This document shows, piece by piece, positions 4,268 through 54,565 of a DNA stretch of 64,000 nt (its first letter is position 1; each line of letters opens with the position of its first letter). A model generated the notes under the pieces. It was not told the origin of the DNA. It made no database searches and saw only the letters and a program-made list of their open reading frames with translations. This DNA is from Bacteroidota bacterium (GTDB taxonomy: Bacteria; Bacteroidota; Bacteroidia; JAHEXY01): the NCBI GenBank assembly GCA_023251875.1, contig JAHEXY010000004.1, positions 130,359-194,358 of the forward strand, written 5' to 3'. A program made the translations under genes and the position numbers.

Positions 4268-4933
4268 TCATGGCTAAAGCCCTTTATACCCTACATTGTT
4301 TTTTTCTCCGCCATAAATGGCGGAGTTAGTTGAGCGAGAACGGTATAGTTAATGCAAATAAAGATAAATGCAGAATACCAACCCCAGCTTAAAAGCTGGG
4401 GGGCATAAGAATAAGCAAGAAGTAAAATGGGCTTTAGCCCAAAAAAATAAAATATTATGGCTTTTGTAAAAATATGGGTACACGCAGTTTGGGGCACAAA
4501 AAATAGATTTCCTTTTCTTGTTAATGGAGTTAAACAACAAGTAATTCAGCATATAAAAGAGAATGCCATAAAAAAGCAAATTTATATTGATTGTATTGAT
4601 GGCCATACAGAACATCTTCATGCATTAATAGCTCTTAATGCAGATAGAGATATTGCCAAAACAATGCAATTGATAAAAGGCGAATCTACACATTGGATAA
4701 ATCAACAAAAAATTACACGAAGTAAATTTGAATGGGCCGATGAATATTTTGCAGTTTCGGTAAGTGAATCAATGTTAGATAAAGTAAGAGAATATATCCA
4801 TGGACAAGAAGAACATCATAAAAAAACAACTTTTACCGAAGAGTATAATAATTTTATAGGCAAATATAATTTTCAAAATCATGGCTAAAGCCAATTCCAT
4901 TTTTCAGTCTATTTTAATCTCCGCCATAAATGG
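4268..4933 (+). mobile_element. REPtron-like unit: RAYT gene flanked by REP hairpins and ~55-bp direct repeats
   Basis: Left flank 4268-4325 and right flank 4878-4933 both contain ATCATGGCTAAAGCC...TCTCCGCCATAAATGG; palindromes CTCCGCCATAAATGGCGGAG (4306-4325), CCCCAGCTTAAAAGCTGGGG (4382-4401), GGGCTTTAGCCC (4429-4440) lie between the left flank and the RAYT gene. Confidence 0.65.
4457..4888 (+). CDS. REP-associated tyrosine transposase (RAYT; IS200/IS605-like Y1 HUH transposase)
   Basis: 143 aa; HUH motif HTEHLHALI; N-terminal HAVWGTKNR; C-terminal catalytic-Tyr region VREYIHGQEEHH; flanked by REP hairpins. Confidence 0.8.
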   Translation: MAFVKIWVHAVWGTKNRFPFLVNGVKQQVIQHIKENAIKKQIYIDCIDGHTEHLHALIALNADRDIAKTMQLIKGESTHWINQQKITRSKFEWADEYFAVSVSESMLDKVREYIHGQEEHHKKTTFTEEYNNFIGKYNFQNHG

Positions 4934-11006: not shown

Positions 11007-11058
11007 CCACGACCTTTAGGTCGTGGAAAAGGAAGACTAAGAGTAATTGGCTTTAGCC
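11007..11058. repeat. REP-like hairpins (CCACGACCTTTAGGTCGTGG and GGCTTTAGCC)
   Basis: Perfect 8-bp stem palindrome at 11007-11026 and a copy of the GGCTTTAGCC unit at 11049-11058, in the intergenic region before queE. Confidence 0.55.
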
Positions 11059-18554: not shown

Positions 18555-18581
18555 ATAAAGTTTCAAAATTTGAAACTTTAT
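18555..18581. promoter_or_regulatory. 27-bp perfect palindrome ATAAAGTTTCAAA-A-TTTGAAACTTTAT upstream of higBA (candidate operator)
   Basis: 13-bp arms around a single central base, 29 bp upstream of the higB start; the same core recurs at 43154-43198. Confidence 0.45.
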
Positions 18582-18609
18582 TGCTATTTTTACGTAAAAT
18601 GTTTATAGC

Positions 18610-18918
18610 ATGAATATTATTGCAAGAGGTACTTTGTGGTATTATATGAAAAGATATTCTCTTGCAGCTAAACAATTAGAATTGTGGCACAACGATGTAA
18701 GAAAACTTAAATGGAAGAAATCAACTGATGTATTAGTTGATTATCCTAAAGCAAGAACCATAAAAAACAATAGGGTTATTTTTCCCATTTTGGGAAATGC
18801 ATATTGTTTGATAGTAGGAGTTGATTATCGTTTCGAAAGAGTGTTTATTATTTTCTTCGGCACGCATGCTGAATACGATGAAATAAATGCAGAAACAATT
18901 GATTATAAAAAGCCATAA
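18610..18918 (+). CDS. higB: Type II toxin-antitoxin system toxin, HigB family (RelE superfamily)
   Basis: 102 aa; pattern GNAYCLIVGVDYRFERVFIIFFGTHAEYDE resembles the HigB GNxYRLI...THxEYDK signature; sits upstream of an HTH antitoxin, the reversed order typical of HigBA. Confidence 0.75.
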   Translation: MNIIARGTLWYYMKRYSLAAKQLELWHNDVRKLKWKKSTDVLVDYPKARTIKNNRVIFPILGNAYCLIVGVDYRFERVFIIFFGTHAEYDEINAETIDYKKP

Positions 18919-18929
18919 ATATATAAGCT

Positions 18930-19304
18930 ATGAATATAAAACCTATAAAAAACAAAAAAGACTATACCCTTGCTTTAGAAAAGATATATGCTTTTATGAA
19001 TAAAGATGTTAAAAAAGGAAGTATTGAAGCTGACGAATATGATATCCTTTGTACGCTTGTAGAAAAATACGAAAATGAATATTATCCAATAGCTCCCCCG
19101 CATCCAATTGAAGCCATTAAATTTAGGATGGAACAATTAGATATGAAAACACAAGATTTGATTGATATAATTGGAAATAAAAGTCGTGCCTCTAAAATAT
19201 TAAATAAAAAAGAGGGCTTGACTCTTAAAATGATTCGTAAAATACATGATGCGCTAAAAATTCCTTTAGATATTTTGGTTATGGAATATGCTTTACATTC
19301 TTAA
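18930..19304 (+). CDS. higA: Type II toxin-antitoxin system antitoxin, HigA family (HTH)
   Basis: 124 aa; MNIKPIKNKKDY...PIEAIKFRMEQLDMKTQDLIDIIGNKSRASKILNKKEGLTLKMIRKIHDALKIP matches the HigA HTH antitoxin pattern; 11 bp downstream of higB. Confidence 0.75.
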   Translation: MNIKPIKNKKDYTLALEKIYAFMNKDVKKGSIEADEYDILCTLVEKYENEYYPIAPPHPIEAIKFRMEQLDMKTQDLIDIIGNKSRASKILNKKEGLTLKMIRKIHDALKIPLDILVMEYALHS

Positions 19305-31121: not shown

Positions 31122-31157
31122 CCCCTCTCCTTTTTCAAGGAGAGGGATGGGGTGAGG
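31122..31157. repeat. CCCTCTCC/GGAGAGGG hairpin element (member of the CT-rich palindromic family)
   Basis: CCCCTCTCCTTTTTCAAGGAGAGGGATGGGGTGAGG; related copies at 35203-35232, 37171-37208, 37330-37366, 50440-50490. Confidence 0.5.
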
Positions 31158-36562: not shown

Positions 36563-37150
36563 CTATTTGGTTATAAACTTAGGCTGATGAGCCGGCCTTG
36601 TATTTACATTTCCTTTTTGAATAGTTAAACGATAATTTAATTTGCCTTCTTTCTTTTCAATAATCACAGGAACAGTATCACTTACTACATCTATACCGGT
36701 TTTATAACTTTCATCATAATGCATGTGATAGCCTTCAGGATCGCAAATAAGCATAAAATAAGTATCCATTCCATCAGCACCGGGCACACCATTGGGTTCT
36801 CCCGGTTGACCAAGGTTAATCCATATTTCATAAGTACCGTACCAATATTCTTCCGGATTTACAAAATATTCAAAATTATAAGTACCGGGAGCAGTTTCAT
36901 AATAATAACCTAAATCAGGGTTATATGGAATAGACGAATTATCATCCCAATAACTATAAGGAGCATACGTTTCGTAATCAACACCAAAAAATGCCAAACC
37001 ATCACGACCAAATGGTCCCGGAGCATTGTTTACTACCACAACATCACATCCATTAAAAAAGAGCAGGCTTATTATTGATAATAAGAGTACAAGAAATTTT
37101 ATTTGAGTTTTCATAAAACAAAAATGATTGGTTCTACTGTGTAGAACCAA
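36563..37150 (-). CDS. Hypothetical lipoprotein
   Basis: Signal peptide with lipobox (LFFNGC); Tyr/Pro-rich mature region. Confidence 0.5.
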   Translation of the reverse strand: MVLHSRTNHFCFMKTQIKFLVLLLSIISLLFFNGCDVVVVNNAPGPFGRDGLAFFGVDYETYAPYSYWDDNSSIPYNPDLGYYYETAPGTYNFEYFVNPEEYWYGTYEIWINLGQPGEPNGVPGADGMDTYFMLICDPEGYHMHYDESYKTGIDVVSDTVPVIIEKKEGKLNYRLTIQKGNVNTRPAHQPKFITK

Positions 37151-37367
37151 TCATCGTGCCAGAAATTAAGCCCTCTCCCTCAATCCCTCTCCCAAAAGGA
37201 GAGAGAAGAAAGCCTTGAGCCTAGTATATATTATAACTTCTTAGACTTACTATTTTAAAAACATAAAAAAAATGAATTTTAAAAAATCAGACTTTCAAAT
37301 CAAAGTACATTCTTTAATCAGAGAACTTCCCTTCTCCCTTCGGGAGAAGGGCTAGGGATGAGGGCTT

Positions 37368-39422
37368 TTACCAAATTTTTATTCTCTTATCCTTTGGCTT
37401 ATACATCTTATCACCTTCTTTCATTCCAAAAGCTTCTTGAAAAGCATCCAGATTGGTAAGTGGAGCAAAACCTCTTATATCTTTTGGTGCATGTGGATCT
37501 GTAATAATTCTTTGTTTACGATCTTCATCAGTAGATGTATATTTCCATGAATTTGCCCAAGCCATAAAATATCTTTGCTCAGCAGAAAATCCATAAAGGG
37601 AATCTTTTCCTGCATTTGAATGTTGAAGTGCATCAAGTGCGATTGTGATACCCCCTAAATCGGCAATATTTTCACCTAATGTTAATGCACCATTTACATG
37701 AATTGTATCAAGCACCGTATAATTATTAAACTGCTCAACAATAGCTCCGGTTTTAGCAACAAATTTTGTTGAATCTTCACTAGTCCACCAATTTTTTAGA
37801 TTACCATCAGCATCAAATTGTCGTCCTTCATCATCAAATCCATGAGTCATTTCATGACCAATCACGGCACCAATAGCACCATAGTTATAGGCATCATCAA
37901 CATTCATATCAAAAAATGGTGGTTGTAAAATACCGGCCGGGAAAACAATTTCATTAAGTGAAGGATTATAATAAGCATTTACTTCTTGCGGATTCATGAT
38001 CCATTCTGTTCTATCAACAGGCTTTCCAATTTTAGCTAACTTTCTATTGTATTCAAAAGCATTCGCTCTCATTACATTTATTACATAAGCTTGTGTTGGA
38101 TCAATTTCAAGACTTGAATAATCTCTCCATTTATCTGGGTATCCAATCTTAATTAAAAATTTATCCAATTTCGCAATAGCTTTTTGTTTTGTTGCATCAC
38201 TCATCCAATCTAAATTCTGTAATCTGGTTTTAAAAGTAGCCTGCATATTTTTTACCATATCAAGTACTCTTTGTTTAGCTTCTGGGGTAAATGATTTTTC
38301 AACAAATAATTTTCCTAATGCCATCCCTAAATTTGCATTAATGCTTAGCATTGTTCTTTCCCATCTTGGTTTGTTTTCCTTTTGACCTTGCAAAATTGAT
38401 CCATTAAAATGGAAGAACTCGTTTACAAAATCATCACTTAAAGCACCCCCGAAATTTGAAACTACCGCCCATCTTAAATATGTTTTCCAGATATCAAGAG
38501 GTTCTGTTTGTATTAATTTATCTAGTCCTTTAAAATAATCTGGTTGAGAAACAATAACAGTATCAACTAATGGAAGTCCAATTTTAGAATTCACCTCAAG
38601 CCAATTAATAGAAGGGGTTATTTTGGCAAAATCTTTTACTGAATACTTATGATAGGTTGCATAAGGATTTCTCATTGTTAATCTATCCATAGAAATTTCA
38701 GCCATTTTAGTTTCAAGTGCAAGAATAGTTTCAGCTTGTTTCCTAGCCGTAGCAAATGCATCTCCCATTAATTGAAACACATTAGTCATGTGTTTTACAT
38801 ATTCATCACGTATTCTTTTTGAGTCCTCATCATTTTTCAAATAATAATCTCTGTCAGGCAAAGAAATTCCTCCCTGATAAAAATATGGTACAATGGCATT
38901 ACTGTTAGTTTGATCTTGATCTGCATAAACACCAAAAACAATTTGAATAGCCTGAGACTGAAATGCTGTAATTATATCTACCAATTGTTTTTTATCATTG
39001 ATATTTTTTATTTGATCAAAAAATGGAGTAAGTGGTTGTACGCCTAATTTATTAATGGAAATAGAATCCATCCCACACTTATAAAAATCTCCTATTTTTT
39101 GTTTATCACTCCCTTTAGGAGAATTAGAATTTGCAGCTTCTTCTAATATTTCCTTCAAAATAATTTTATTGTTTTCATTTACCTGGTTAAAACTTGTCCA
39201 TGAAGATTCAGTAGAAGGAACCGGATTATTTTTTAACCATTTTCCAACAGCCCATTTATAAAAATCATTAGCAGGAGATTCAGAAGAATCAATATAGGAT
39301 AAAAATACAGGTAGGGGTTTATCTGATTTTTTTTCTTCTTTAGTTTGATTGGTGCAAGAAATAATGAAACCACTAACTAAAAAAGCTAGAAGAAATAATT
39401 TAATCGTATTTTTTTTGTACAT
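37368..39422 (-). CDS. M13-family zinc metallopeptidase (neprilysin/PepO-like)
   Basis: HExxH zinc motif VIGHEMTHGFD, ENIADLGG, NAYY motif; lipoprotein-like signal. Confidence 0.85.
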   Translation of the reverse strand: MYKKNTIKLFLLAFLVSGFIISCTNQTKEEKKSDKPLPVFLSYIDSSESPANDFYKWAVGKWLKNNPVPSTESSWTSFNQVNENNKIILKEILEEAANSNSPKGSDKQKIGDFYKCGMDSISINKLGVQPLTPFFDQIKNINDKKQLVDIITAFQSQAIQIVFGVYADQDQTNSNAIVPYFYQGGISLPDRDYYLKNDEDSKRIRDEYVKHMTNVFQLMGDAFATARKQAETILALETKMAEISMDRLTMRNPYATYHKYSVKDFAKITPSINWLEVNSKIGLPLVDTVIVSQPDYFKGLDKLIQTEPLDIWKTYLRWAVVSNFGGALSDDFVNEFFHFNGSILQGQKENKPRWERTMLSINANLGMALGKLFVEKSFTPEAKQRVLDMVKNMQATFKTRLQNLDWMSDATKQKAIAKLDKFLIKIGYPDKWRDYSSLEIDPTQAYVINVMRANAFEYNRKLAKIGKPVDRTEWIMNPQEVNAYYNPSLNEIVFPAGILQPPFFDMNVDDAYNYGAIGAVIGHEMTHGFDDEGRQFDADGNLKNWWTSEDSTKFVAKTGAIVEQFNNYTVLDTIHVNGALTLGENIADLGGITIALDALQHSNAGKDSLYGFSAEQRYFMAWANSWKYTSTDEDRKQRIITDPHAPKDIRGFAPLTNLDAFQEAFGMKEGDKMYKPKDKRIKIW

Positions 39423-39846: not shown

Positions 39847-40893
39847 ATGCCTGTAAAAACAATAGATTGCGATATGTTAATAAGTGTGAATAACGTTTCG
39901 ATAATTGATGTACGTTCTCCTAAAGAATTTTTTCAAGGACATATTTTTGCTGCGCACAACATTCCTCTTTTTGAAAATGAGGAAAGAGAAGAAGTCGGAA
40001 AGGCCTATAAACAAAGGGGAAGAGAAGATGCAATTGAATTAGGATTAAAAATTGTTGGATCAAAACTTCACGAATTTATTTCTCGCACAAAAAAAATTTC
40101 ACCAGAAAAAAAAATAATTATTCATTGTTGGAGAGGAGGAATGCGATCAGAAAGTTTTGCATGGCTTTTAAATTTAGCAGGATTTGAAGTTTACAAATTA
40201 CATAAAGGATATAAAGCATACAGAAATTTTGTTCTTCAAACTTTCGAAAAAAAAATCCAAATAATTATTCTTGGTGGAATGACGGGAAGTAGGAAATCAG
40301 AAATTTTAAAATCAATTGCAGATGCGGGAGAACAAATAATAGATCTTGAAAGCCTTGCCAATCATAAAGGTTCAGCATTCGGGCAAATAGGAATGCACCC
40401 TCAACCAACACAAGAACAATTTGAAAATAATTTATCTCATGCTCTAAATAAATTAGATGTAACCAAACCTATTTGGGTGGAAGACGAAAGTCATGCCGTT
40501 GGATTGGTTAGAATTCCCAACGCATTATTTTCTCAAATGCGAGAGGCGCCTGTTGTAAAAATTGAAGTAAGCAAAGAAGAAAGAGTAAAACATCTTATTA
40601 ATGGATATGCATCTGCGCCTTATGGAGAATTAAAAAATGCATTGGAGAAAATTCAAAAACGCTTAGGCGGATTAAATACATCATTAGCACTTGACGCATT
40701 AGAAAAAAAAGATTTTGCCGCTGTTGCATCATTATCATTGGAATATTATGATAAAGCATATAATTTTGGCCTTGCTAAACGATCACCATATAATATTTAT
40801 AATTTAGCACTTGAAAAAATTTCAGATAAAGAAAACGCAAATAAAATAATTGAATATGCCTACAACAACATTACCTACAGAAAAAGAAGTTAA
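39847..40893 (+). CDS. mnmH: tRNA 2-selenouridine synthase MnmH (rhodanese + P-loop domains)
   Basis: Rhodanese active-site region [13 protein letters not shown]; P-loop-like [10 protein letters not shown]. Confidence 0.8.
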
Positions 40894-41914
40894 ATTAACA
40901 CAGTATAGTCATGGTGCGGGCTGTGGATGTAAAATTGCCCCAAAAATTCTAGATCAAATTCTACAATCGAATTTTAGTTTTCCGGATAATGATAAACTCC
41001 TTGTTGGTAATTCTACCAAAGATGATGCGGCCGTTTATGATATTGGAAACAGACAGGCTATTATAAGCACTACTGATTTTTTTATGCCCATTGTTGATGA
41101 TGCATTTGACTTTGGCAGAATAGCCTCTGCCAATGCAATCAGTGACATTTATGCTATGGGAGGAAAACCATTGCTTGCCATAGCCATTCTTGGATGGCCT
41201 ATTAATAAACTTACACCGGAAGTTGCTCAAAAAGTAATTGAAGGAAGTAGAAAAATTTGTAGTGAAGCAGGTATACCACTTGCAGGCGGACATAGCATTG
41301 ATAGCCCCGAACCTATTTTTGGTTTAGCCGTAACCGGAATTATAGAAAAGCATAAAGTAAAAATGAACAGTACTGCTACCGAAGGCTGCAAATTATTTTT
41401 AACCAAACCAATTGGGATAGGCATTCTTACAACAGCACAAAAGAAAAATGTATTAAAGGACGAGCATAAGTTTATTGCCCGTGATCAAATGATTAAGCTC
41501 AATGCCATTGGTGAAAAAATTTCTCAATTTGATTTTGTAAAAGCAATGACTGATGTTACAGGATTTGGATTACTAGGCCACTTAAGTGAAATGTGTGAAG
41601 GAAGTAATCTTTCAGCAGAAATTTATTTTGACGCAGTTCCTACATTGCCTTATATTAATGAATACATTGCTCTAAATTGTATTCCGGGAGGAACCAATCG
41701 AAATTGGGATAGCTATGGACATTTAATAGACACGATAACCGAAGATCAAAAAAAGATTTTATGTGATCCTCAAACCAGTGGAGGTTTATTAATTGCTGTT
41801 TCTCCCGAAAGTGAAAACGAATTTCTTACTTTTATGAAAGCAAATGACTTTGATTTAAAAGCTATTGGAGTATTGAAGAAAAAAATGGGAGAAAAATTAA
41901 TTAAAGTAAATTAA
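40850..41914 (+). CDS. selD: Selenide, water dikinase SelD (Cys-type)
   Basis: N-terminal [11 protein letters not shown] motif with Cys at the catalytic position; AIR-synthase-like fold segments; overlaps mnmH by 44 bp. Confidence 0.85.
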
Positions 41915-41972
41915 CCACAGAGACGCGGAGACACAGAGTATTCTATTTCTCTGTGTCTTTGTGCCTCTGTGG
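41915..41972 (+). terminator. Long imperfect hairpin downstream of selD (CCACAGAGACGCGGAGACACAGAG ... CTCTGTGTCTTTGTGCCTCTGTGG)
   Basis: Nested complementary 8-bp segments read directly after the selD stop. Confidence 0.45.
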
Positions 41973-41987
41973 TTGCAATTATTAAAT

Positions 41988-43106
41988 TTGAAAAAAGTAA
42001 TCATATCCGTATCAAACGACCTTAGCACCGACCAACGGGTTCATAAAGTTTGCATAGCTCTTTCTCAATGGAATTGTGATATTTTATTAGTGGGTTGTTT
42101 TCGCGAAACAAAAATTCCACTTGAAAGAAAATACAAGATACATCGACTTTCTCCTGTTTTTAAAAAGGGTCCATTTTTTTATGCTGAATTTAATATCCGA
42201 CTCTTTTTATTTTTGCTTTTTCATAACGCAGATTTTATTGTAGCCAATGATTTAGATACTTTACTTGCAAATTATCTTGCATCTAAACTAAAAAGCATCC
42301 CTGTAGTTTATGATAGTCATGAATTGTTTACTGAAGTGCCTGAATTGGCCCATAGAAAATTTGTGAAGAGTATTTGGGAACGTATTGAGAAATTTATTTT
42401 CCCAAAACTAAAATACGTTTATACCGTTAATAATACCATAGCCAATATATTTAAGCAAAAATATAATGTAGAGGTAAAAGTAATTAGAAATGTATCTCAT
42501 AAAAATATGGTAACAAAATTTGATTCGAAAAATGAATTAGGATTGCCTACTGATAAAAAAATTATCATTTTACAAGGAGCTTTTATTAATGTAGAAAGAG
42601 GTGCCGAAGAAGCTGTGCTTGCCATGCAATATGTCGAAGGCGCTATTTTATTGATAATTGGAGGCGGTGATGTATTTAATAAATTGAGAAAGATGGCTGT
42701 TGATTTAGACTTAACGCCTAAAGTAAAGTTTATTGATAAAGTTCCATATAATCGCTTAATGCATTATACCGCTAATGCAGATATTGGATTGTCTCTCGAT
42801 AAAGACACTAACTTAAATTATAAATATAGCCTACCCAATAAATTATTCGATTACATACAGGCAGGAGTTCCTGTTTTGGTTTCCAACTTGGTTGAACCAA
42901 AAAAAATTATTTCGGAATTTAACATTGGCGAAATTATAGAGAGCCATAATCCCAAACACATTGCTGAAAAAATAATGCACATGCTTTCAGCTACTGATAA
43001 GATTGAATTATGGAAAACCAACCTAAAAAAAGCTGCTGAAGTATATTGCTGGGAAAATGAGGAGCAGAAGTTAAAGGAGATTTATAAAAAAGTAATTGAA
43101 GATTGA
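41988..43106 (+). CDS. Glycosyltransferase family 4 (group 1)
   Basis: GT-B fold C-terminal half. Start uncertain: the track ORF begins at a GTG at 41961 inside the selD hairpin; the TTG at 41988 gives MKKVIISVSNDL. Confidence 0.65.
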   Translation: MKKVIISVSNDLSTDQRVHKVCIALSQWNCDILLVGCFRETKIPLERKYKIHRLSPVFKKGPFFYAEFNIRLFLFLLFHNADFIVANDLDTLLANYLASKLKSIPVVYDSHELFTEVPELAHRKFVKSIWERIEKFIFPKLKYVYTVNNTIANIFKQKYNVEVKVIRNVSHKNMVTKFDSKNELGLPTDKKIIILQGAFINVERGAEEAVLAMQYVEGAILLIIGGGDVFNKLRKMAVDLDLTPKVKFIDKVPYNRLMHYTANADIGLSLDKDTNLNYKYSLPNKLFDYIQAGVPVLVSNLVEPKKIISEFNIGEIIESHNPKHIAEKIMHMLSATDKIELWKTNLKKAAEVYCWENEEQKLKEIYKKVIED

Positions 43107-43153: not shown

Positions 43154-43198
43154 TTTGCGGTGATAAAGTTTCAAAATTTGAAACTTTATCACCGCAAA
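43154..43198. promoter_or_regulatory. 45-bp perfect palindrome containing the same core as the higBA-upstream palindrome
   Basis: TTTGCGGTGATAAAGTTTCAAA-A-TTTGAAACTTTATCACCGCAAA between convergent genes; core identical to 18555-18581. Confidence 0.45.
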
Positions 43199-45574: not shown

Positions 45575-46201
45575 CTAGTTCTTTTTAAATTCAGCCATTG
45601 CCAGTATTGCTTTAGGATAGCTTTCAATCCTTTCATAACGAACTACCCTCCGAGACTCAACATCAAATTCCTTTTTCAAAATCTCTTTTAATTTTTTCTT
45701 TGCATTTAATAAATGCCATTTCGAAACACCTTCCGAAATATTTAATAATTCAGCTATTTCTTTATGAGAATAGCCTTCTATGATAAATAGCGTAAAAACA
45801 TGTCGGCTTGGTAATGAAATTTGCTGTACTAGTTTTAAAATATCTTCACCACTCATTTTATTAAAAATTTCAGGTTCAATAGTAATGTCATCATCTAAAT
45901 CAAATTTCATAATGGACTCATAATGCACTTTACTTTTTATATAATTCAAAGCTGTATTGATCACAATTTTTCTGATCCATCCTTCAAAAGAGCCGGCCCC
46001 TTTATAAGTTTCAATTGCTTCAAATACTTTAAAAAATGCATTGTTCAACACTTCTTTGGCTTCTTGTCGATCTTTTGTATAACATATAGTGGTTCTAAGC
46101 ATATCTTCATAAAACTTAGCATACAAATATTTTTGCGCCATTCTATCGTTCTTAATACACCCTTGTATAAGTTGGGGATCTGGGCTATTTTTGCTGTACA
46201 T
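45575..46201 (-). CDS. RNA polymerase ECF-type sigma-70 factor
   Basis: Sigma-70 region 2 and region 4 HTH (HKEIAELLNISEGVSKWHLLNAKKKL). Confidence 0.8.
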   Translation of the reverse strand: MYSKNSPDPQLIQGCIKNDRMAQKYLYAKFYEDMLRTTICYTKDRQEAKEVLNNAFFKVFEAIETYKGAGSFEGWIRKIVINTALNYIKSKVHYESIMKFDLDDDITIEPEIFNKMSGEDILKLVQQISLPSRHVFTLFIIEGYSHKEIAELLNISEGVSKWHLLNAKKKLKEILKKEFDVESRRVVRYERIESYPKAILAMAEFKKN

Positions 46202-46434
46202 AAGCTAATTTAATTTGGCGTTTGTGTTGGCTTTCTGTTTATATAGACAGTTCAAAAACCAGAAAGGTTAGTGAGTATTATAAATTATTTTTAGAATAAT
46301 TAAAATGACAACAAAAAAGGGAGATTATTAGGGGCTATAAAATTAAGAAAAATATACCTGAAATTTAGTTCTAATTATTACATTGCCTCATTAATCAATA
46401 AATTTATATTTATTGCAAATATTCTTATAGTAAT

Positions 46435-54291: not shown

Positions 54292-54565
54292 GCTTCGACT
54301 TCGCTCAGCACGACCTTTGCTCGGCTGTCATGCTGAGCGAACTATGTCGTTTTTTAAGCCTGAAAGGCTTTAATATCAATAGCCTCCGATTTTATCGGAG
54401 GTAAGAGTTTGATTGTTGATTATTGAACCCCTACGGGGTTCAACTGATTTGTTTGCATTTCCCCCTGATTTCATCAGAGGTTATTCAAATTTAATCCCTT
54501 CGGGATTGGGTGAACAACAAAGCATTACTCCTTAAAAAACGACATTGGCTGAGCGAAGTCGAAGC
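54292..54565. repeat. 274-bp hairpin-rich element bounded by perfect 18-bp inverted repeats (MITE-like or structured RNA)
   Basis: GCTTCGACTTCGCTCAGC (54292-54309) and its exact reverse complement (54548-54565); nested GTCGTTTTTT / AAAAAACGAC; internal stem-loops AAGCCTGAAAGGCTT, CCTCCGATTTTATCGGAGG, GAACCCCTACGGGGTTC, ATCCCTTCGGGAT. Confidence 0.65.

Follow-up and report, generated by a model that had tools for sequence, protein, structure and literature searches.

A second copy of a putative HigA operator within a 45-bp palindrome between two convergent genes of a Bacteroidota bacterium

Why does the palindrome that precedes a higBA toxin-antitoxin (TA) module recur, perfect and longer, between the 3' ends of two convergent genes? 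The question is raised by positions 43154-43198 of the window, by which we mean the whole stretch of 64,000 nucleotides that was analysed.

A 45-bp palindrome containing the higBA-upstream core

The sequence at 43154-43198 reads TTTGCGGTGATAAAGTTTCAAA-A-TTTGAAACTTTATCACCGCAAA and forms a perfect 45-bp palindrome, in which two 22-nt arms with 100% complementarity flank a central A. Its 27-bp centre (43163-43189) is identical at 27 of 27 positions to the palindrome ATAAAGTTTCAAAATTTGAAACTTTAT found at 18555-18581. We refer to the latter as copy 1 and to the longer palindrome as copy 2. The first-pass annotation had described copy 2 as a perfect 45-bp palindrome with the exact core of 18555-18581, and reading of the sequences and matching of the arms confirmed this description. 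A 23-mer of the core, searched with up to 3 mismatches, was found in the window at the two copies only, against 0.00 sites expected from 100 dinucleotide shuffles; the common core is thus not due to chance. In arm length, copy 2 (22 nt) exceeds all other hairpin-type inverted repeats of the window; the longest arms obtained in 20 block shuffles measured 9-14 nt.

Copy 2 is located in a 108-bp spacer that separates the stop codons of a glycosyltransferase gene (+) and of a convergent lipoprotein gene (-) (Table 1). Among the open reading frames of the window, none that resembles a TA gene lies in or beside this spacer, so that the site is indeed, as previously noted, placed between convergent genes without adjoining TA genes. 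Having no TA genes downstream, copy 2 is operator-like in sequence but is no operator functionally. Alignment of its flanks with the higBA locus revealed no similarity past the 27 bp, and no coding remnant of higA or higB was found there. A 7-mer, TTAGCGC, is common to the flank of copy 2 and to the higA end of a related contig, L124; its strand is the wrong one, and it was taken as a chance match. Copies 1 and 2 are both unchanged in independent contigs of the same species obtained from other samples (L006-L009 and L010-L013). The lipoprotein has no homologue except itself among the clusters of a collection of 5.8 billion proteins, and the sequence on the right-hand side of the palindrome may be restricted to this lineage.

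Table 1. Coordinates of the two palindrome copies and of the genes around them
Feature	Position in window	Strand	Remarks
Copy 2, whole palindrome	43154..43198	.	47 nt past glycosyltransferase stop, 16 nt past lipoprotein stop
Copy 2, 27-bp core	43163..43189	.	Includes the 17-bp putative HigA site GTTTCAAAATTTGAAAC
Copy 2, left 9-nt extension TTTGCGGTG	43154..43162	.	Pairs with 43190-43198; not in copy 1
Copy 2, right 9-nt extension CACCGCAAA	43190..43198	.	Pairs with 43154-43162; not in copy 1
GT4-type glycosyltransferase	41961-43106	+	Pfam Glycos_transf_1 and Glyco_transf_4
Predicted lipoprotein, 220 aa	43215-43877	-	Convergent with the glycosyltransferase
Copy 1, putative HigA operator	18555..18581	+	-55 to -29 relative to the higB ATG; directly 5' of the Bacteroidota-type -7 box
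Candidate Bacteroidota -7 box TATTTTTA	18585..18592	+	Inferred by sequence inspection
higB toxin, 102 aa	18610..18918	+	Pfam PF09907 HigB_toxin, E = 3.7e-23, 82 bits against a cut-off of 27
higA antitoxin, 124 aa, HTH	18930..19304	+	Assigned by homology; starts 11 nt after higB

The higBA module and the operators of its family

As in HigBA type II modules, the operon at 18610-19304 encodes a RelE-fold HigB toxin first and an HTH (XRE-type) HigA second. HigA has 1871 homologues, the majority of which carry PF01381 and several of which were named HigA by their sources. A family profile built from 17 homologues, including the protein of the window, matches the E. coli/Shigella HigA structures 5IFG and 5YCL (E ~5e-9). 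Searched alone, the window HigA gave no Pfam or NCBIfam match at E <= 0.01. A palindromic operator adjoining the higBA promoter is represented by copy 1, as judged from its position-homology with about 50 homologous loci and from its conservation in two close relatives, L193 and L126. The consensus of the Bacteroidota -7 box is TAnnTTTG, and the homologous loci show TAtcTTTG, TAttTTTG, TAtaTTTG or TActTTTG at the same distance from their palindromes.

In four Bacteroidota loci whose HigA is ~60% identical (L032, L034, L037 and L040), a palindrome of the GTTCCC-N5-GGGAAC type lies directly 5' of the TAnnTTTG box. At the equivalent position the window has GTTTCA-AAATT-TGAAAC, followed by TATTTTTA. 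Around 45 distinct higBA loci from IMG/VR carry one or, in some cases, two TCCC-N5-GGGA palindromes at a distance of 17-60 nt upstream of higB. PF09907-type HigBA modules of many phyla (L043-L122, together with the four Bacteroidota loci) follow a common operator rule, TCCC-N5-GGGA, often present in two copies.

The clade of the window departs from this rule in both the site and the protein. Its half-site is TTTCA-N5-TGAAA instead of the TCCC type, and TTTCA-type sites were seen in this clade only. The recognition helix of HigA has a lysine (RASKIL or RASKVL) in the window clade only, the glutamate being invariant in the other ~95 aligned sequences of the family (RVSEIL, RVYEVL, KVSEVL). The recognition-helix region also contains KKEG in place of K/R-K-R-x (e.g. 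KKRK). The change from Glu to Lys in the helix and the change of half-site represent a single evolutionary event, and so are consistent with copy 1 being the HigA operator without proving it. The operator rule and the paired switch of helix and half-site are the most useful by-products of this analysis, and they are directly testable.

The region upstream of the cassette was available in the two close relatives. Both keep the window-type core GTTTCAAA-W-TTTGAAAC while their flanks diverge: the L193 cassette is 84% identical to that of the window at the nucleotide level and its core matches at 26 of 27 positions; the L126 cassette is 77% identical and matches over 26 consecutive core bases. Copy 1 is most likely the HigA operator, because its position is homologous to that of the family operators, its core is kept in relatives, and protein and site have changed together.

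The palindrome of L193 is extended, with outer bases (AGCA...TGCT) unlike those of copy 2. At L193:1519-1553 it reaches 35 bp, AGCAATAAAGTTTCAAA-A-TTTGAAACCTTATTGCT, with one mismatch. Operators in the window clade may thus tend to grow into longer palindromes. The cassette of L126 (L126:95-735) is in decay, higB and higA each being interrupted by in-frame stops, yet its operator core is intact.

Origin of the second copy

Relatives of the region around copy 2 (L123-L125) were found through homology to the glycosyltransferase. Two of them come from independent assemblies, L124 from ENA (ERZ27254836) and L125 from JGI (3300045502), and their glycosyltransferase orthologues are 78% and 89% identical in amino acids to that of the window, respectively. 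In both, a convergent higA whose product is 87-89% identical to the window HigA lies 50-60 nt past the glycosyltransferase stop, that is, in the same spacer that holds copy 2 in the window. Each contig breaks off within higA, before the operator side of the cassette. The third relative, L123 (glycosyltransferase 81% identical), has neither cassette nor palindrome, and its glycosyltransferase gene overlaps a convergent decarboxylase gene. The higBA cassette is found in at least four contexts among close relatives: the rluA site of the window, the glycosyltransferase site of L124 and L125, L193 (JGI sample shared with L125), and L031. The latter contains the closest relative of HigA; its contig begins inside higB, which leaves no operator in view, and the neighbouring glycosyltransferase is unrelated to that of the window. 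These several contexts show that higBA moves, or is gained and lost, within the group, with the glycosyltransferase-side spacer among the places where it resides.

The identity of the two cores, the position-homology of copy 1 with the family operators and the presence of higBA in this spacer in relatives are direct observations. Since the core is identical and relatives carry higBA in the same spacer, copy 2 can be read as a leftover operator. Its core would then be a second, promoter-less HigA operator, most likely the remnant of a higBA cassette lost from the glycosyltransferase spacer, an interpretation to which we give slightly better than even credence. If a genome is assumed to have a few thousand intergenic spacers, an unrelated element would only seldom land fortuitously in one of the three further spacers in which relatives carry higBA. 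The first-pass annotation had offered, as one of three readings among which it did not choose, an orphan HigA-type operator or a decoy site, and it is the orphan operator that we favour, on the strength of the 27-bp identity, the operator position of copy 1 and the higBA genes in the spacer of relatives.

The loss of the cassette, the binding of HigA at copy 2 and any regulatory consequence are what we infer from these comparisons. A higBA cassette would once have occupied the spacer downstream of the glycosyltransferase; its genes would have been lost and the operator left behind. This route would need a deletion of ~0.75 kb, with one end at the -7 box and the other in the glycosyltransferase-proximal spacer, because the higA end of the cassette and not its operator end faces the glycosyltransferase in L124 and L125. 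Copy 2 should be bound by HigA or the HigB-HigA complex, given that its core matches the autoregulatory site at 27/27 positions. Bound there, HigA would occupy a passive extra site, with slight titration of the repressor, and might also serve as a protein roadblock against read-through from one convergent transcription unit into the other. With the nine palindromic bases added at either side, both transcripts would contain a 21-22-bp hairpin, which may define, protect or stabilise their 3' ends.

Some features of copy 2 sit uneasily with a relic. The loss event is deduced from synteny alone, the flanks being devoid of residual similarity to higBA. Instead of the decay expected of a relic, copy 2 shows no mismatch and carries 9 additional palindromic bp per arm. 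This suggests that the hairpin is under selection or that the copy arose very recently. Both copies of the window have an A on the + strand as their asymmetric central base, which would weakly fit a direct rather than inverted relation of copy 2 to copy 1; this base is free to vary, since L126 has a T at the centre.

The spacer folds strongly when considered as RNA, with -38.1 kcal/mol on the + strand (z = -7.3) and -36.1 kcal/mol on the - strand (z = -8.5) for its 108 nt. The palindrome might therefore act primarily as RNA, as a bidirectional hairpin that terminates or stabilises both convergent 3' ends, its identity with the operator being functionally meaningless here. The hairpin begins 47 nt (+ strand) and 16 nt (- strand) past the stop codons, and the 9-bp extensions of its arms are G+C-richer (GCGGTG/CACCGC), resembling the base of a terminator stem. 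An intrinsic terminator combines a stable hairpin after the stop, which is present, with a U-rich tract after the stem, which is absent from copy 2: the tails that follow the stem, TACAAAAC (+) and CTAACATT (-), also read as TACAAAACAAC and CTAACATTTAG, contain no T-tract. The T and A runs are even placed opposite to the arrangement of a bidirectional terminator, with TTTG at the 5' end and CAAA at the 3' end, and a terminator scan flagged copy 2 on neither strand. The absence of a T-tract does not disqualify copy 2 in this organism, since other gene-end hairpins of the window (31123, 37329, 11007, 4382) also lack one; those hairpins, however, have G+C-rich stems of 9-14 bp, as against the 22-bp A+T-rich stem of copy 2. 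No Rfam match in the whole window reached the threshold, the sub-threshold ones being generic hairpins such as miRNA precursors. An RNA function also leaves unexplained both the 27/27 identity with the operator and the presence of higBA in the spacer of relatives, and we consider it rather unlikely as the primary role of copy 2. Of the bidirectional terminator happening to share the core, as proposed in the first-pass annotation, the chance sharing of 27 bp is excluded, while a hairpin at both 3' ends may well coexist with the operator reading and may explain the G+C-richer 9-bp extension.

The remaining explanations invoke mobility or selection. The cassette occurs in at least four contexts among close relatives and copy 2 is found at one of these sites; palindromes, furthermore, are hot spots for rearrangement. 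The palindrome could on these grounds be a recombination or mobility site, an att-like target of which copy 2 is an empty or solo instance, or else one copy of a small REP/MITE-like palindromic repeat. Both versions appear improbable. The core is present only twice in 64 kb, relatives show it only attached to higBA, and no recombinase or transposase gene adjoins either copy. Homology upstream of the cassettes fades gradually and does not stop at the palindrome edge. At the higA-distal junction, no second palindrome or half-site was detected within 100 nt past the higA stop in the window, L193, L031, L125 or L124, the best candidates being at the level of shuffled sequences. A 21-mer of the core gave 5 single unrelated matches and no multi-copy genome among 185,579 species-representative genomes, a set that does not include the source genome, and 16 unrelated matches in JGI metagenomes, where no contig was multi-copy except L020, a simple repeat. 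Two JGI metagenome contigs, L015 and L017, match 25 nt of the core and have no higB nearby; the 17-mer had 66 matches in IMG/VR, all of them away from HigB and HigA homologues. A small palindromic mobile unit, as once suggested for this site, is thus not supported by the window, in which no further copies exist, by the 185,579 representatives, in which no genome is multi-copy, or by the JGI metagenomes and IMG/VR. Selection offers another route: copy 2 could be maintained as a genuine HigA target, either a HigA-dependent roadblock or insulator or a decoy setting the level of free HigA, and not be a relic at all. It is perfect, with an extended palindrome, where a relic would decay; it is identical across samples of the same species; and antitoxins have been reported to regulate genes outside their own operon. 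Against this, copy 2 does not lie in a promoter and is a single such site in 64 kb, and more distant relatives either lack the site (L123) or have the cassette there instead. All available same-species contigs being identical, their conservation is uninformative on selection. We see little prospect for this explanation. It is likewise a long shot that HigA-bound copy 2, or its cruciform or hairpin, forms a switchable barrier between the convergent units, or that the operator palindrome is a breakpoint of higBA gain and loss. In the case of a barrier, cell-envelope genes would be coupled to the TA state; in the case of a breakpoint, antitoxin operators would be agents of TA mobility.

A sharp cassette boundary at the palindrome edge, suggested by BLAST, was ruled out by alignment, which revealed weaker homology further upstream. 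No related site is present at both cassette junctions in five contexts, which disposes of an att-site model. Inspection of the palindrome ends found no GTTRRRY core sites of the kind expected for an integron attC.

Known systems and neighbouring features

HigA of P. aeruginosa binds a higBA-like palindrome, TTAAC-GTTAA, in the mvfR and pelA promoters (PMC6987408), and MqsA of E. coli binds mqsRA-like palindromes at rpoS, cspD and csgD (PMC4894380). Antitoxin-binding palindromes outside TA loci are thus already known, and copy 2 would by analogy be a further case: here too, the antitoxin's own operator palindrome recurs elsewhere in the chromosome. Those sites measure 10-15 bp and are found in promoters of regulated genes, whereas copy 2 lies between two stop codons, contains the exact 27 bp of the operator inside a 45-bp perfect palindrome, and has a plausible origin as a cassette remnant. 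P. aeruginosa HigA and MqsA also belong to antitoxin families other than that of the window HigA. Closer to the latter is the YgjN/YgjM-type HigBA of E. coli (PF09907; 5IFG, 5YCL), with which the module of the window shares a toxin-first operon, an HTH antitoxin and a palindromic operator adjoining the promoter. It differs from this family by its TTTCA half-site in place of TCCC, accompanied by the Glu-to-Lys change in the recognition helix, and copy 2 differs from the operators of the family in having neither promoter nor TA genes beside it.

Copy 2 resembles bidirectional intrinsic terminators as a strong symmetric hairpin within 16-47 nt of both stops, but it is devoid of a T-tract on either strand and its stem is 22 bp long and A+T-rich. 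It also resembles extragenic palindromes of the REP/BIME type, being a ~40-bp palindrome in the spacer of convergent genes; unlike these, it has no multiple dispersed copies in the collections scanned, and its core accompanies only higBA in relatives.

If HigA binds copy 2, the site would be a natural example of an antitoxin gaining sites outside its own operon. The route would in that case be the loss of a cassette that leaves its operator, and not the evolution of a site de novo, and it would suggest where the contested 'global regulator' functions of antitoxins, MqsA and HigA among them, may have come from. The understanding of TA systems is unchanged by these data, which represent a modest, testable addition.

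Several other hairpins are located at gene ends in the window. Those at 4382-4401, 11007-11026, 31123-31146, 37329-37351 and 54423-54443 mostly have 9-10-bp G+C-rich stems and no T-tract. The one at 37329-37351 is perfect, with 10-nt G+C-rich arms, and is in tandem with a perfect hairpin at 37124-37154 (14-nt arms, ATGATTGGTTCTAC/GTAGAACCAATCAT), likewise without T-tract, downstream of an M13 peptidase gene (37368-39422, -). Hairpin-only 3' ends may be common in this organism.

Directly upstream of the glycosyltransferase, at 39847-41914, are overlapping selU-like (Rhodanese + AAA_SelU) and selD-like (AIRS) genes. L123 has the same block in synteny, with a DinB-family gene inserted after selD and before the glycosyltransferase. 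A long imperfect inverted repeat, beginning AACCACAGAGACGCGGAGACACAGAG, occupies the short gap between the selD-like gene and the glycosyltransferase at 41913-41974, with 26-nt arms that are 85% complementary and a 10-nt loop. The called GTG start of the glycosyltransferase falls within this repeat, and homology with L123 starts at 41988.

On the other side of copy 2, a 51-bp stretch (46227-46277) upstream of an ECF sigma-factor gene (45575-46201, -) is 84% identical to L031:689-739, which is intergenic and lies in an unrelated context, upstream of a glycosyltransferase gene. In this stretch TTTTGAAC precedes TATA-rich sequence, and the two loci could have an ECF-type promoter in common.
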